DNA of 64,000 bases from NCBI GenBank assembly GCA_010093815.1, contig ML996570.1, one strand, 5' to 3'. The stretch is from Pseudovirgaria hyperparasitica (Eukaryota). Shown here piece after piece: positions 26,109-35,217 of this stretch (position 1 is the first letter of the stretch; each line of letters begins with the position of its first letter). The notes under the pieces were generated by a model that did no database searches, was not told the origin of the DNA, and was given only the letters and a program-made list of their open reading frames with translations. The position numbers and the translations under genes are program-made.

Positions 26109-27663
26109 TCATGAGTTTAGCTGCACGTAGTTACCTGGTGGATGGTTAGCTGACATCGAAAGAGAAGGCTTCCAAGTTGCGCAAGACGTACCAGGGAATT
26201 GCCCTTGCCGCGTTCCGATTTTCCCTGTCCACCACTCATTTTCGTTCTGCGTTCGCTGCACAATCTCAATCACCTCGCCAGTTGAGAAACTCAGATCGCC
26301 ATGGGCTTGTGCTTCGTAGTCATATAATGCCGTCACGGTCTCTGCTGCCGTGGGTGCTCCGCTAAGCCTCGAGGGTTTCGGTTTCGGTGGTGGTGGTTTC
26401 GACTTGGCTACCGTGCCCCAATTCGCACCCGACACAGGAGGTGATGTCGTTGAGCTAGGAGGGCTATATGGTGGGGGAGCACTCTCCTTGCCGTCTGACA
26501 AGGAGCTTCTCCCCGAGCCTTGAGTCAATAGCTTAGGTTCACGCTTGTTTTCAAGCGCGTATTTACTCTGGCCATATCGGGACTGATTCAACTTCCTTTG
26601 CCCTGTAGTCTTGAATTTGACGATTGAGATAGCCTCTGCTTGGGCTTGGGTGTCGCCACGCTTCTCCTCAAAGGAGTCCTCAATAGCCAAAGTAAGGTTG
26701 AAATAACCAATGTCGATGTCTTGCATCTTCTCGTGAAGGGTATAAAAGATGTTTAGCTGCATGTAGTAGAAAGACTGAAATAGCGGACGTATGAACTCGC
26801 GTTCGAGTCTGAACAGCTGTGGTAGCTCCTCCTTGAGCACATTGTTGAAATATTCATAGTCTTGGGTCGCCAGCTCGACGTCGTTCTCAGCCTTATAGAG
26901 GGCCTTTTCGTCCTTGAGTGTCTTCTCTTTCTTGTCCTGAAGTTTTTTGAGCGTGGCACGATGTCGATCGTAGTCCAGTTGTTTGTGGTCTCGTTTCACC
27001 GCCGATTTTCGAATGACCTTTACGATTTCAAGCAACTCCTCGGCGGGTTTGACGATTCTCGACTCAATCATTTCCAGCTCCGGCGCTAATGTGGCCTGGA
27101 GCTCTTTGACAATAACTTCATATTCTTCACAGGCGCGTATGCCCTCCGGGTTGCCTTCGGCTACAAAAGAGTCGGGATCGGACATTCGACCAGAGATAGG
27201 TTTGTATATTTCCGCGATAGCTCTGGAGAATTCAATCTGGTGGGACAGCATGCCTGCATCCAGTCAGTTCTTAGTCAAAGCATCTTTGCTCATGGTATCG
27301 ACGAACCGTTGATGGAGTCAAAGTACCTGGGAATGATTAGCTTGTGCCATAGACCCTCGCCACTGATCCTTACTTCTTGGATTCATCGTGTAGTTTCTTC
27401 GTCTCCTGCTCCAACTCTTGGAAACGCCTTTCAGCGTCGATGTAGATGGGATCTTTGGATATTTCCCCCTGAGCTGCATCAGTAACCCCGCGTCGACTCT
27501 ATCCATCTACGCAGACGGTCATTTGAGGTGGGCAGGCTCACAATATTGAAGCGGCTCTTGACTGTTTGAGGGGCCTATATATCACTAGATTAGAGTCACC
27601 GAGTAAAGCATCGTCGTGGTTACTCACTCGGGTGATACCCTTGGTGAAGCCTTTCCAACTCAT
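26109..27663 (-). CDS. RVS167: Amphiphysin N-BAR + SH3 endocytic adaptor Rvs167/Hob1
   Basis: Spliced N-terminus [46 protein letters not shown] domain; SH3 [15 protein letters not shown]...WWTG...GQFP|GNYV; last intron 26191-26135. Confidence 0.95.
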
Positions 27664-28453: not shown

Positions 28454-30230
28454 ATGTCTAATGTAGCCCCTACAGTCGTTCGACAAGCTTTCAGAACCTG
28501 CTCTCGCAGACCTTCATATCAAACACATCCTTCCGCCACCTCGCGCATCACATCATGCATCGCCTCTCGATCACAGGGACGTCGGTCCTACGTTTCCGAG
28601 TCGAAACCAGCACAAGCGACCGTTAACATTGAGACCACAATCAAAGCAGATCAAAGAGCGTTCCTTAATCAGACCGGCAAGCGACCTCAAGATGAGATAA
28701 TGCCAACAACTGGCATGAGTGCAGACGCAATGATGAGTCCAGCAGCGGGTACGACATCAGATTGCTTCATCAAATTTGCCTTGTACGCTGACAGCTTGTG
28801 CTTAGGTATACTCAAGCAAGCCACGGTGATGGATGAAGGCACTAGGCCAATATACCTTGACATGCAAGCAACAACGCCATTAGACCCACGTGTATTGGAT
28901 GCTATGCTCCCGTTTTATACCGGCCTGTATGGTAATCCTCATTCCCGAACTCACGCATACGGATGGGAGACAGATAAGGCCGTCGAACAGGCCCGAGAAC
29001 ATATTGCTAATCTCATCGGCGCTGATCCAAAAGAAATCATATTCACTAGTGGCGCAACCGAGAGCAACAACATGAGTATCAAAGGTGTGGCACGCTTCTT
29101 TGGTCGTGGAGGCAAGAAGAAGCACATCATTACCACACAAACGGAACACAAGTGTGTACTTGACAGCTGTCGTCACCTTCAAGATGAAGGCTTCGACATC
29201 ACTTATCTTCCCGTCCAAAATAATGGCTTCGTCAATATGGAACAGCTGGAAGCAGCTATTCGACCTGACACTGCACTCGTCAGTATCATGACCGTTAACA
29301 ACGAAATTGGCGTTATCCAGCCTGTCGACGAGATTGGGAAGCTCTGTCGGTCGAAGAAGATCTTCTTCCATACAGATGCTGCTCAAGCCGTTGGCAAAAT
29401 CCCAATCGATGTTAACAAGATGAATGTAGATCTCATGTCCATATCTGGCCATAAAATCTATGGTCCCAAGGGGATCGGTGCGTGCTATGTTCGTCGACGA
29501 CCACGTGTCAGACTCGATCCCATCATCAGCGGTGGTGGTCAGGAGAGAGGTTTGAGGAGTGGAACTTTGGCTCCACCTCTTATCATTGGCTTTGGAGAGG
29601 CTGCCAGAATTTGCAGCGAAGAAATGGAGGTATGTAAAGCACCCGTCCATCCAAACTCCCTCCCTCCTCAGATGATTATAAAAACCTATACATGCATGGC
29701 TTTCTGAGCACTCTGTGCGATGTTGCTATATAGTACACGTATGATTCCTTCGAGCATACACACAAGTACACCGTCTATTGTCCGAACACATCATTGACTA
29801 CTAGCAGTACGACTCCCGCCGGATCAAGAAGCTATCCGATCGCCTACTGAAGGAACTTCTTGCTCTCGAACACACCAGTCAGAATGGTGATCCTCAACAC
29901 CGTTATCCTGGTTGTGTAAACGTATCTTTTGCCTACGTCGAAGGCGAATCACTTCTTATGGCCCTAAAAGACATTGCTCTGTCATCCGGTAGCGCGTGTA
30001 CCTCCGCTTCACTAGAGCCCAGCTATGTGCTTCGCGCATTGGGTAACAGCGATGAAAGTGCTCATAGCAGCATACGTTTTGGAATCGGACGATTCACTAC
30101 GGACGCCGAGATTGATTATGTGCTGGACGCAGTGAGGAAGCGAGTGACTTTCTTGAGAGAGCTCAGCCCATTGTGGGAACTTGTCCAAGAAGGCGTTGAC
30201 TTGAATACCATTCAATGGAGTCAGCATTAA
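28454..30230 (+). CDS. NFS1: Mitochondrial cysteine desulfurase
   Basis: Arg/Ser-rich presequence; [20 protein letters not shown] (PLP Lys), [15 protein letters not shown] (catalytic Cys), ends IQWSQH; introns 28749-28805 and 29630-29807. Confidence 0.98.
29668..29756 (+). ncRNA. Candidate intronic box C/D snoRNA with an 18S rRNA guide
   Basis: Inside the 178-nt NFS1 intron 2: C-like ATGATTA 29672-29678, guide ACATGCATGGCTT 29690-29702, CTGA 29704-29707, C'-like ATGATT 29741-29746. The guide is the exact reverse complement of 18S AAGCCATGCATGT. 3' boundary uncertain. Confidence 0.72.
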
Positions 30231-30653: not shown

Positions 30654-32589
30654 ATGTCGGCTTTGCCTGACAGCGTACTGAACTGGCTCTACGGCCAGCT
30701 CTCCACAGTAGGTCCTAAGCTTAACAACTCGTTGTTGTTCTAACGTGCAGTCTAGAGCTATCTGGACGCCAATCGTACATACTCTGATATCGTCGAATCC
30801 CTCTCGAATTATCGGTCCCTGCGACCGCGAACCGAAGTTTACAGTAGGCTGCTACCCTTTAAGGCCACACAAACTACGTAGCTAAGAGATTCCAGCATAT
30901 GAGAATGGACAATCGGCCTTATTCATAAATATAAGCGGTACCATACCTGTGCAATTTAGGGGCGTAGTCTACAGATTTCCCGTCACGATATGGGTGCCAT
31001 ATGCGTACCCAAGAGAAGCGCCAATGGTCTACGTGACGCCCTCACAAGATATGGTAGTCACACCAGGTCAGCATGTTAGCGGAGATGGAAGAGTGTATCA
31101 TCCGTATCTAGCGCAATGGGGACAATACTGGGATGTAAGTTGGAATGAACAGTTACTACTAGGATTGGGCACCTGGAGACTTGAGAGAACAACAGCTTAC
31201 TTTGTCAGAAATCTTCGCTTTCAGATTTCATATCCGTCCTCCGGGGCGTCTTTGCGAAAGAACCGCCAGTGAGAACGAAACAGCACCCGCAGTTTACGTC
31301 TCCACAGACCACACAACCTTCACCTCAACCTCCTCCCGTCCCGCCGCCACCGGAGGAGCTTCGAAGAGCAAACCATCATACGCCTACGCCTGCCAATACG
31401 ACCCCCTCGAATGGAGCTCCACAGCCTCCGCCAAAACCCCCAAAGCCTTACTCCTCCACTGGATCCCCTATTCCAGGTTCCGCCCCTCCACCGCCCCCAA
31501 AGCCGCCTCATTCATCGCAGCAGGATTATACACAGGTCCAACAACGTCATAGCTGGCAGCAAGCTCATGATCTACAAGCTCCACAACAGTCCCAGAGCCA
31601 ACACCCTCCTCAGAGACAGTCCTCTTTATCTCAGCCTCCACGTCCGCAGATCCAACCACAGTATAATCGCCAGGGCCAGTTCAGTAGCCCTGTGAGTCCC
31701 ATAACTCCGATATCTGCACCTCGCGGACCTGTACCTCAATTCCAGCAACAACAACCACAACCATACCAACCGCAAGTGCATTCCGGACTACGACAATCTC
31801 AACAAACTCTACACGACACAGCTCTTCCTCAGCCACACCCGCACTACCACCCTTCAGGCCATCTGCAACATCAATCATATCCATCTCAACCACAACCACA
31901 CTCTCAATCACAGCCGTCCAAACCAAAGCAGCCCATCCCTGACCTACTTGATGCTCCCTTAGACGTCACCCTTCCCTCCCAAGACCCATCGCACGCCCAT
32001 CTCCCGGCTCCTCCCATTCCCCCGAACCCTGAGAAAGACGCCCTCCTTCGTACCCTCTCTACTGCTCTTACTTCACGCATAAGCACCACCATAAATGCCA
32101 ACACGGCCGCCATCCCTGCTCTTCGAAGCCAGCAGACCGCACTCGGGCAAGCGCACAATCAGTTGCAGTCTGAACTCCATGAGCTACAACAGCTGGACGC
32201 AACACTTGCCGCAAATGAGCAGATAATTCGAGAGGCAATGCTGACAGCGGATCGGGTTATGGACGAAGCGAAACGCCGGAAGGTACCAGATGTTGATGAG
32301 GTATTGGTCGCGCCAACAGTGGTAGGTGGACAATTGTACACCTTATGTGCAGAGGAGAGAGCTGTTGGAGATGCCCTATTTGTGCTTGGGCGTGGGCTGG
32401 ACCGAGGGAGGGTGGGTGCTGATATATTTGTCAAGGTAAGTCTGCAGAGTCGACTCTACGGTGTTAGTGTTGTATTAATCCGATATCTAGCAAACACGAA
32501 GTCTGGCGCGCGAGCAGTTCTTGAAGAAGGCGTTGATCAAGAAGATTGCGCGCGGCATGGGGCTCGAGGTGTATGACTACGGACGATAG
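30654..32589 (+). CDS. VPS23: ESCRT-I subunit Vps23/TSG101 (UEV, Pro/Gln-rich linker, coiled coil, steadiness box)
   Basis: Introns 30708-30755, 30844-30895, 31135-31208, 32436-32490. GTIPVQFRGVVYRFP..WVPYAYP..P.VYV, GRVYHPYL, FVK|QTRSLAREQF. Confidence 0.95.
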
Positions 32590-33375
32590 AGGCTCTGATG
32601 CCGGTGTTCGCACATTTACGATCCTTTGCAGCTCTCTCAAACACAGCTGTGCGGCAACTTGACCGAACCTGTTAGAAGCGTACCGAACCACAGTGAACTT
32701 CAGAATTTCCAATGGAGGCCTCCGCTATCATAAGAATATCCAAATGCACCATTGGAATGGGCACTGGCGTCTGATGGGCATGCTTTGCTTGATCTAACAC
32801 CTTGCTAGTGACGACGCCAATGTCGAGGCCTCGGGCGGATCCCGTGACGTGAGCCACACGACGCAGAGGACTGTTCTGGCTCCTACGTGAGTGAGAATAG
32901 ACATAAATGAAACGTCGAAGGTGGTCATCTTGCTAGGAATTTCGATTCCTAGCTATGTCTTTCTGGCCATATGAAGTCAAGCATCACTTGGGCGCTGGTC
33001 AAAACAGAGCCTCAGTCTCATGCTAATTGTAAGACCTCTGGCAGGCGATCTACTAAGAACATTCGCCGTACCAATGCATACAAACAACCGACTTTGAGTC
33101 CTTCGAGATGAGATGACTTTAGGTTTGCGACCAAAGTTCACACTGTGTAATGAATCATATGTCGGCGCAGATGGAAACAGAATAGTCTCCCAGTCCCCAA
33201 AAAGACAGAGTAGGCTGTCAAACAAAGAAACCATCTACTGGTGCAGAGTTACACCCATGTAGCAACCTGCAACGTGACGTCAGACTCCAGCCACAGCTAG
33301 AATATAGAATGTATTATGGCATAGCTCCAGGTCCTGATTTTCCCCAATGGTCACACCTTCCACTCGAATGACAAC

Positions 33376-35217
33376 ATGTCTGATGAATACAGCTATGAGA
33401 GAATTGACACAGATAGGCGCGAGATACGTCTACTCGTAATTCACTGTCCGCCGGGAACAAACAGTGATTTGGTTTGCTGCGACTTCAAGTATATCTCGCT
33501 TCTTGACGACCCAGTTACAGAGTACAAAACCATATCTTATGCCTGGGGCGCCGACTATCCAAAGGCGAAGATATCTATCGGGGGTAAACAACTTGTTGTA
33601 CCCCTGAATGCCGAAAAGGCGCTTCGATGCTTTCGACTGCCCGATCAGGACCGCGTACTATGGATTGACGCCGCGTATATCAACCAAGCAGACGACGGTG
33701 AAGATGGCGAAAAGGGACCTCAAGTCCGGTACATGAGTCTGATATATTCGAAATCTCAGGGAAACCTAGTGCATCTTGGTGATGACGCTGATGGGCTTGG
33801 AGGATTAGCGTTCAAGACGGTGCGATACCTGCGAGACAACAGACTGAGCATGCTTGACGATGATGCGATCAAGCCGGACTCCGACGAGGCGAGAGCACTC
33901 TCCAGCCTGTTCTCCTGCCCGTGGTTCTGTCGTGCTTGGGTTGTGCAGGAAGTAGTCCTTGGAGGCCCGGCACATTGCTTCCTCGGCACACACGACATCT
34001 GGATCAAGGCATTTCTAGAATGTGCGCTCTTTGTCGGCATGGAGAGAAAATGGCAAAGTGATGCAGGTCAGCTTGCCGAGAAGTTCGGTCGCAGTGCTGC
34101 TATGGCTATAGACAACTTGATCACCCTACGCGATGTTCGCCAAAAATACAAGGAAGGGTGGTCTGGACTTCAGGAAAAGCCTGATATTGCAACACTGCTG
34201 CAGAGGAGAAGACAGTGCAAGGATCCAAGAGACATGGTGTATAGCATTGTCGGTCTCTGGGATCCAGATGTGACACGCGATATACCACCACGGCTGAGGA
34301 TTCGATACGAGGCCTCGGTGCCGGACGTGTACAGATCGACAACAAGGTATTCTATTCGAACCCGGGACGGTCCGTACATCCTGCATCAGGTTGCTCATCG
34401 AACGGATGGGGACTTAGAGGAAAATGACATACCAGCATGGGCATATCAAGAGAACGGTACGGTCGAGGAGCACAATTTCCCCACTTGGGTACCTCGTTGG
34501 GACCGTGATACAGAAGAAGGTGCACCACATGACCTGAGTGTACATTTCAAATGCTGGCATCCGTGGAATGCACTGGTCAAGCGCGCAGACAAATGCGAGG
34601 ATTCTATAGCGAACATTCTAACTCTCGATGGGATTATGATCGATACTGTCAGCGCAGTGACCTCACCTCTCCGAGCGGACCAACAGCGTGATCCTGTTGC
34701 ATTGCACAGCTTCGTGGAAGCTGTTGAGAGGATCACAAGAGGAGTTATGGACGGGGATGTCACAGATTCGGTCGCAGAGACACTCATTGCAGGGTGTCAG
34801 AATCCACACAAACTCGCTACAGCAGAACACTGGGCTCCATATGAGACATTCCGAGAGCATCTTACTCAGATTGTAAAGACTGGGGTGGACATGCGCCTTC
34901 CGCAAGCTATGCATGCGGGAGGAGGCAGGAAAGCTTATTTCACACGACTTGTGACCGCGTGTCTCTGGCGTCGGTTCATAGCCACAAAGGATGGACATCT
35001 AGGGCTTGCGCCGCGGGCGACAAGGGAGGGTGATGTCCTAGTGGCTCTGCGGAACGGCATGTGGCCTTTTGTGCTGAGGCCTATGGTAAGCGAGAGCGGT
35101 GTAGAAAGCAAGTATCAATTTCTCGGCCAAGCATATCTGAGAGGATTCATGCAGGGCGAGATTGTGCAGCAGTGTACTGATGGAAGAAGAGAGACTCAAA
35201 CGTTCAGTATGGTATAA
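33376..35217 (+). CDS. Heterokaryon incompatibility HET-domain protein (HET-6-like)
   Basis: EIRLL, YKTISYAWG, LWIDAAYINQ, QVRYMSLIYS, WFCRAWVVQE, DPRDMVYSIVGL, PTWVPRW, GLAP...GD, GQAYLRGFMQGE; intronless. Confidence 0.93.
   Translation: MSDEYSYERIDTDRREIRLLVIHCPPGTNSDLVCCDFKYISLLDDPVTEYKTISYAWGADYPKAKISIGGKQLVVPLNAEKALRCFRLPDQDRVLWIDAAYINQADDGEDGEKGPQVRYMSLIYSKSQGNLVHLGDDADGLGGLAFKTVRYLRDNRLSMLDDDAIKPDSDEARALSSLFSCPWFCRAWVVQEVVLGGPAHCFLGTHDIWIKAFLECALFVGMERKWQSDAGQLAEKFGRSAAMAIDNLITLRDVRQKYKEGWSGLQEKPDIATLLQRRRQCKDPRDMVYSIVGLWDPDVTRDIPPRLRIRYEASVPDVYRSTTRYSIRTRDGPYILHQVAHRTDGDLEENDIPAWAYQENGTVEEHNFPTWVPRWDRDTEEGAPHDLSVHFKCWHPWNALVKRADKCEDSIANILTLDGIMIDTVSAVTSPLRADQQRDPVALHSFVEAVERITRGVMDGDVTDSVAETLIAGCQNPHKLATAEHWAPYETFREHLTQIVKTGVDMRLPQAMHAGGGRKAYFTRLVTACLWRRFIATKDGHLGLAPRATREGDVLVALRNGMWPFVLRPMVSESGVESKYQFLGQAYLRGFMQGEIVQQCTDGRRETQTFSMV

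Follow-up and report, generated by a model that had tools for sequence, protein, structure and literature searches.

The NFS1 locus and its introns

The window analyzed here, a stretch of 64,000 nucleotides from contig ML996570.1 of Pseudovirgaria hyperparasitica, carries on its plus strand a gene for the cysteine desulfurase NFS1, in which three exons are separated by introns of 57 and 178 nt (Table 1). NFS1 is placed between a BAR-SH3 (Rvs167-like) gene on the minus strand (26109-27263) and a VPS23-like UEV gene on the plus strand (30886-32576), with a HET-domain gene (33325-35217, plus strand) in the neighborhood. A Paraphaeosphaeria protein named as UEV-containing (P0153) clusters with NFS1 proteins, which hints that the adjacency of NFS1 and UEV genes is conserved. 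At another NFS1 locus, an intron-containing tRNA gene is found nearby (L018:1380-1474, minus strand).

Removal of 29630-29807 restores the NFS1 reading frame, and Pfam assigns PF00266 to both of the flanking exons. In public data, contigs of runs X1 and X2, which represent one sample whose library type is not on record, jump exactly 57 nt and 178 nt, both stretches being bounded by GT..AG. The larger intron had drawn attention in a first-pass annotation for being about three times the local norm, which holds in comparison with the gene's other intron, as delimited by the spliced contigs. The 57-nt intron is absent from related loci wherever the N-terminus is covered (14 of 14; a single ungapped-length HSP, residues 1-373). 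The 178-nt intron has counterparts in relatives and is the shortest of them, the orthologous introns being approximately 182-250 nt long at the 34 loci where both exon ends could be aligned. Contigs with NFS1 do not cover this intron, and are thus uninformative about its snoRNA either way.

Table 1. Features of the NFS1 gene and of the predicted box C/D snoRNA in its last intron, in window coordinates
Feature	Position	Strand	Basis
NFS1 (cysteine desulfurase) exon 1	28454..28748	+	spliced frame; spliced contigs
NFS1 intron 1, 57 nt, GT..AG	28749..28805	+	joint in spliced contigs
NFS1 exon 2	28806..29629	+	PF00266, E 5.7e-82
NFS1 host intron, 178 nt, GT..AG	29630..29807	+	restored frame; spliced contigs
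Predicted mature snoRNA, Nc CD4 ortholog (very probable)	29667..29749	+	alignment A1; profile built without the window
Box C, ATGATTA, U at position 6	29672..29678	+	read from sequence
13-nt D' guide, complementary to 18S 5' region	29690..29702	+	identical to Nc CD4 guide
Box D', CTGA	29704..29707	+	D' in Nc CD4; invariant in alignment A1 by selection
D'-C' hairpin, minimal, 4 bp, 3-nt loop, without TGAC loop motif	29708..29718	+	read from sequence
Degenerate box C', ATGTTGC	29720..29726	+	aligns with C'-like column block of relatives
Box D, ATGA	29741..29744	+	ortholog matrix, combined C'+D 23.2 bits
NFS1 exon 3	29808..30230	+	PF00266, E 1.5e-10; spliced contigs

Box C/D elements within the host intron

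Box C/D snoRNAs are recognized by terminal C (RUGAUGA) and D (CUGA) boxes that form a kink-turn and by 10-21 nt of antisense sequence upstream of D or D'. In the 178-nt intron we found variant kink-turn boxes, a 13-nt guide, an internal C' box and an intron position compatible with processing, with box C beginning 42 nt past the intron start and box D ending 63 nt before the 3' splice site (64-91 nt in relatives). The distance from C to D is 73 nt, compared with 71-109 nt in relatives. The ends of the RNA given in Table 1 are predicted, lying up to 5 nt outside boxes C and D. A hidden box C/D snoRNA in NFS1 was what the first-pass annotation had proposed, and its ATGATTA, guide and CTGA are all where it had placed them. 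One spacer base separates the guide from D', and G29699, the fifth base upstream of D', is opposite the target C. The guide and D' pattern occurs once in the 64 kb, against 0.01 occurrences expected from shuffles (at most two mismatches). A profile built without the window matches 29668-29746 (E 6.2e-10), a score to which the guide contributes, and on this guide the loci had been selected. A covariance model, R1, had included the window, making its match there circular, and guide-only matches already reach 15-31 bits with it.

The position of box D required correction. TCGA near 29750 and CCGA near 29782, between which the first-pass annotation had left the choice open as degenerate D boxes, score -4.3 and -0.2 bits on the D element derived from orthologs, versus 8.2 bits for the ATGA at 29741, which is contained within an ATGATT that had also been noticed, without being taken for box D. 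The C' element reaches 14.9 bits on the ortholog matrix. With the window left out of the matrix, the combined C'+D score was matched by none of 600 random window stretches, the highest of which reached 12.8 bits. By this measure, box D is the ATGA at 29741-29744. The complementarity between CTCAG and CTGAG that had been pointed out around box C is present in the letters and pairs in the predicted fold, but it did not stand as a stem of the snoRNA: the fold is no better than that of shuffles (z 0.60), TCAG precedes box C in none of 31 distinct relatives, and the pairing would mask box D' rather than form a terminal stem. The predicted fold has no terminal stem, an optional feature in fungi that, according to the accessible part of the survey by Canzler et al., is missing from over 40% of fungal C/D snoRNAs (Canzler et al., 2018, PMC5824354).

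The variant boxes have parallels. A U at position 6 of box C is also found in 19 of 29 distinct NFS1-hosted relatives, and the A at position 1 of box D can pair with it, such that the ATGATTA/ATGA combination keeps both GA dinucleotides together with a U-A pair, as do 12 of the 29. In the same survey, D position 1 is given as substituted in 4.2% of fungal snoRNAs, usually by adenine (Canzler et al., 2018, PMC5824354). Across the 29 relatives, the base at position 6 of box C and that at position 1 of box D form G-C in 10, U.C in 7, U-A in 12 and G.A in none, counts that would fit a swap from G-C to U-A via a U.C state. The associated Fisher p of 0.001 overstates the evidence, since nine of the ten G-C loci belong to one clade (UFBoot 94), and the D-calling rule was chosen after the data had been seen, once a first rule had failed; the covariation is not independent evidence. 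In the tree of NFS1 loci, where one misaligned row (L110) was disregarded, the position of the window has weak support (59).

The first-pass annotation had named Rfam as a check, and a strong match was absent: in the window, no family reached the gathering score. The relatives gave a similar result, with no snoRNA match at gathering among 19 loci and two weak matches (E >3) among 13. With a relaxed E-value, the window gave a match to sR14 (E 0.19) that lies in an exon on the minus strand and was dismissed as chance. The blank result fits the survey figure, as of 2018, of 64 of 75 Neurospora snoRNAs missing from Rfam (Canzler et al., 2018, PMC5824354).

Conservation in NFS1 and probable orthology with Nc CD4

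A scan of metagenome contigs for the guide and D' pattern gave at least 121 loci, all of them selected on the guide. Among the 121 matches listed, at least 38 fall in the last intron of NFS1 and at one and the same exon boundary, and in all of these a C-like box is found shortly upstream; being redundant, they reduce to 29 distinct C-to-D sequences. The matches listed also comprise two of the CD4 form without NFS1, 31 in three other snoRNA classes, three in tandem arrangements and 47 unclassified matches, which are probably due to chance (for two that were inspected, L021 and L097, there was no snoRNA context). An independent sample was chosen by protein similarity and consisted of 120 NFS1 homologs, 47 spliced and 73 not. 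Twenty of the 120 read at least 28 codons past the exon end, and the translated guide is present exactly in 15 of the 20 and in a looser form in 18; of the two misses, one does not read through into an intron and, by eye, a partial variant of the guide is present in the other. In many filamentous ascomycetes, then, the element with the predicted Cm49 guide occupies this one intron of NFS1, which is the outcome that a comparison of orthologous introns, as recommended in the first-pass annotation, should give for a conserved guide and D' box. Massarina eburnea provides a named protein among the NFS1 homolog matches, almost all of the named ones being, we presume, from Dothideomycetes; none of them served to label a locus as Aspergillus or Neurospora. 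In four of the homologs (P0019, P0021, P0032 and P0119), the translated guide is a variant with a changed 5' end, which may mirror a change in the organism's own 18S rRNA.

The first-pass annotation had anticipated that the snoRNA might already be in a Neurospora catalogue, and it is: we conclude with considerable confidence that the window copy and Nc CD4 of Neurospora are orthologous box C/D snoRNAs, each with a single guide that is predicted to direct methylation of 18S C49. The Nc CD4 family was thus described in 2009, and the window copy is a genuine but mostly ordinary member. Nc CD4 (EU780928) is reported as an 81-nt intronic RNA of chromosome V, cDNA-cloned and northern-positive, with a guide at D' that matches its predicted target, 18S-Cm49, at 13/0 (Liu et al., 2009, PMC2780460). 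As printed there, it agrees with the window at 18 of 18 letters over the 13-nt guide, the spacer base and the D' box, and the two RNAs share the D' location of the guide, an intronic setting, a similar size and the predicted target. They differ in their boxes, which are canonical in Nc CD4 (AUGAUGA/CUGA, 81 nt from C to D) and AUGAUUA/AUGA with 73 nt in the window copy. One of the NFS1-hosted loci, L003, agrees by eye with Nc CD4 over 73 of its 81 positions (approximately 90% identity), which suggests that NFS1, annotated as NCU04636 (PMC4020840), may be the host in Neurospora too; no host is named in the accessible text of Liu et al.

The 13-bp duplex and the C49 target that the first-pass annotation had derived from the fifth-nucleotide rule correspond to what is printed for Nc CD4, where the target is in Neurospora 18S rRNA. 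The annotation's remark that the site is not known in budding yeast is also in line with Table 1 of Liu et al., where no homolog is listed for S. cerevisiae, S. pombe, Arabidopsis or human (Liu et al., 2009, PMC2780460). In the accessible part of that paper, methylation was mapped by primer extension for CD11 and CD29 only, such that Cm49 is a prediction there. A Chaetomium study reports 33 Nm sites in 18S rRNA, marked only by color in a figure (PMC12723226), and mapping of Cm49 was not found in the accessible parts of a T. rubrum table and the Chaetomium papers or in literature searches. Two further Neurospora RNAs offer partial parallels. The orphan Nc CD55 (EU780979) has, by eye, AUGAUUA near its 5' end and AUGA near its 3' end, as in the window; at 137 nt, with a different internal sequence and without the Cm49 guide, it is a precedent for this box variant and not a homolog, and the available text of Canzler et al. 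describes it as Neurospora-specific (Canzler et al., 2018, PMC5824354). The 18S-Am28 guide snR74/U27 (Nc CD21) is likewise a D' box C/D guide for the neighboring 18S 5' region; its guide and site differ from those in the window, and it is given as conserved in yeasts, plants and humans.

Outside the guide, the window copy is similar to its relatives in the 3' half, as the combined C'+D score shows. All 31 relatives have a motif after box C and another before box D, and 24 of the 31 have TGAC in the D'-C' loop (4.0 expected); the three motifs, which were defined after the alignment had been seen and two of which are only 3-4 letters long, are missing in the window copy. In relatives, they could be extra rRNA-pairing elements analogous to those described by van Nues (2011, PMC3116282). 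For a putative helix joining the spacer that follows box C to the region ahead of box D, cognate pairs had no clear advantage over swapped ones (permutation p 0.07 and 0.25). It is conceivable, given this loss together with the degenerate C', the minimal D'-C' hairpin and the shortest host intron of the family, that the family is real and the window copy is decaying or weakly active, having kept its boxes and guide and lost accumulation or efficient methylation. We consider this unlikely, as the guide and D' remain intact over all 18 letters, boxes C and D are still complementary, and the C'+D element stands far above background although the surrounding intron is unlike that of relatives.

A functional, ordinary ortholog of Nc CD4 would be expected to follow the standard box C/D pathway. 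The ATGATTA and ATGA boxes would fold into the terminal kink-turn, in which a U-A pair would replace the G-C pair that is usual there, and Snu13, Nop56, Nop58 and Nop1 would assemble on it. From NFS1, presumed to be a constitutively transcribed host, the debranched intron would be trimmed by exonucleases to approximately 80 nt. The D' guide would then pair over 13 bp with pre-18S rRNA, and Nop1 would add a 2'-O-methyl group to the cytidine facing the fifth base ahead of D', which is C49 when numbered as in Neurospora.

The snoRNA might instead act mainly as a chaperone for folding of the 18S 5' region, as for U3 and domain A of U14, with methylation absent or incidental. The target is in the 18S 5' domain, and the short motifs conserved in relatives could add rRNA pairing (van Nues, 2011, PMC3116282). 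The exact one-base spacing between guide and CTGA, kept in four snoRNA contexts, is what is expected of a methylation guide, the available listing has no homolog in yeasts, and the extra pairing that van Nues describes stimulates methylation and would involve motifs that the window copy is missing, all of which make a chaperone very unlikely in our estimation. The first-pass annotation had raised a role in folding as well as a coupling to expression of NFS1; beyond the conserved host gene, neither has support.

Least credible of all is chance complementarity in a long intron with no snoRNA: the blank Rfam result, the unremarkable fold and the unclassified matches such as L021 and L097 could be read in its favor, but it is countered by the recurrence in the same NFS1 intron at 38 or more loci, the identity with a cloned RNA, the absence of most Neurospora snoRNAs from Rfam and, from the protein-selected sample, the guide in most of the read-throughs.

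Afu-203 and the Cm49 guide in other hosts

The NFS1 location bears on an RNA from Aspergillus fumigatus. Afu-203 (AM921950) was reported as a 111-nt cDNA with a 110-nt northern band, in the sense orientation in intron 1 of Afu3g14240, and was published as an entirely novel ncRNA with no conserved motif or function (Jochl et al., 2008, PMC2377427). Afu3g14240 is nfs1 (PMC6250123). At each of the 14 related loci with N-terminal coverage, no coding-region intron precedes the one that holds the snoRNA. Among the relatives that have AUGAUUA/AUGA boxes, several measure 100-109 nt from box C to box D. Judged by host gene, intron and size, Afu-203 is probably the Aspergillus form of Nc CD4; none of the compared loci was shown to be from Aspergillus. 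A search by name and accession for literature on Afu-203 found the original paper only, and a literature search for a snoRNA in an NFS1 intron in fungi, judged by title or the start of the abstract, found none.

The same guide is present in other snoRNAs and other hosts. In a calcipressin class of at least 17 loci (L005, L011-L014, L019, L034, L042, L043, L053, L058, L061, L064, L074, L099, L114 and L118), an intronic double-guide snoRNA located just after the calcipressin frame has the Cm49 guide at its box D and, at D', a guide that by eye resembles the one of Nc CD19/snR56. Searched for a single locus, L061, the calcipressin has its best named match in Lactarius (86%) and is closest to Lactarius and Russula, which suggests that the carrier is like a Russulaceae basidiomycete; a search of the ESM Atlas with the calcipressin piece returned nothing. 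A second snR56-like element is found approximately 150 nt downstream in L011 and L061. In a second class of at least eight loci (L002, L004, L026, L030, L038, L100, L107 and L108), the guide is at box D within an intron of a Bot1p-family (PF12298) gene, and the D' guide is, by eye, like that of Nc CD39 (26S-Am897). In a third class of at least six (L044, L050, L056, L071, L081 and L106), it is at box D in an intron without an evident coding host, following elements that by eye are U18-like and snR39b-like. In the sources accessible to us, we did not find the NFS1 host, the identity of Afu-203 or the basidiomycete box D guide. The distribution of CD_4, the change of guide position in basidiomycetes or the Afu-203 sequence may already be in the supplements of Canzler and Jochl; clan CD_19 of Canzler (snR52, snR56) may already cover the basidiomycete guide (PMC5824354 supplement).

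It is tempting to consider that hosting by NFS1 is itself functional, such that, across filamentous ascomycetes, production of the Cm49 guide follows that of the protein which donates sulfur for Fe-S clusters and tRNA thiolation, with Afu-203 as the Aspergillus form. Iron or sulfur status would then tune an 18S methylation that yeasts lack. We give this little credence, as the same guide is found in unrelated hosts, in the basidiomycete group and elsewhere, and two loci of the CD4 form (L090:275-357 and L104:253-340) have canonical boxes in introns whose 300-nt flanks are without an NFS1 match, a possible change of host. The guide's presence in other hosts argues for a greater importance of the target site than of the host gene.

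Taken as a conserved guide for predicted 18S C49 methylation, the snoRNA has modest implications. It fills an annotation gap, as the Nc CD4 family is not in Rfam and many of its members have AUGAUUA/AUGA boxes, which can escape consensus searches, and it probably gives a function to Afu-203, an RNA without a class since 2008. The distribution suggests that the predicted C49 methylation is common to filamentous ascomycetes and at least some basidiomycetes, and that the guide switches, from one snoRNA to another, between D' and D. In practice, work on the essential nfs1 gene that exchanges its promoter or removes its introns would affect the snoRNA as well. In a further arrangement, three loci (L023:57-212, L041 and L091) carry short units in tandem; each unit has a C box and the Cm49 guide at D', and a CTGA follows 35 nt further on.
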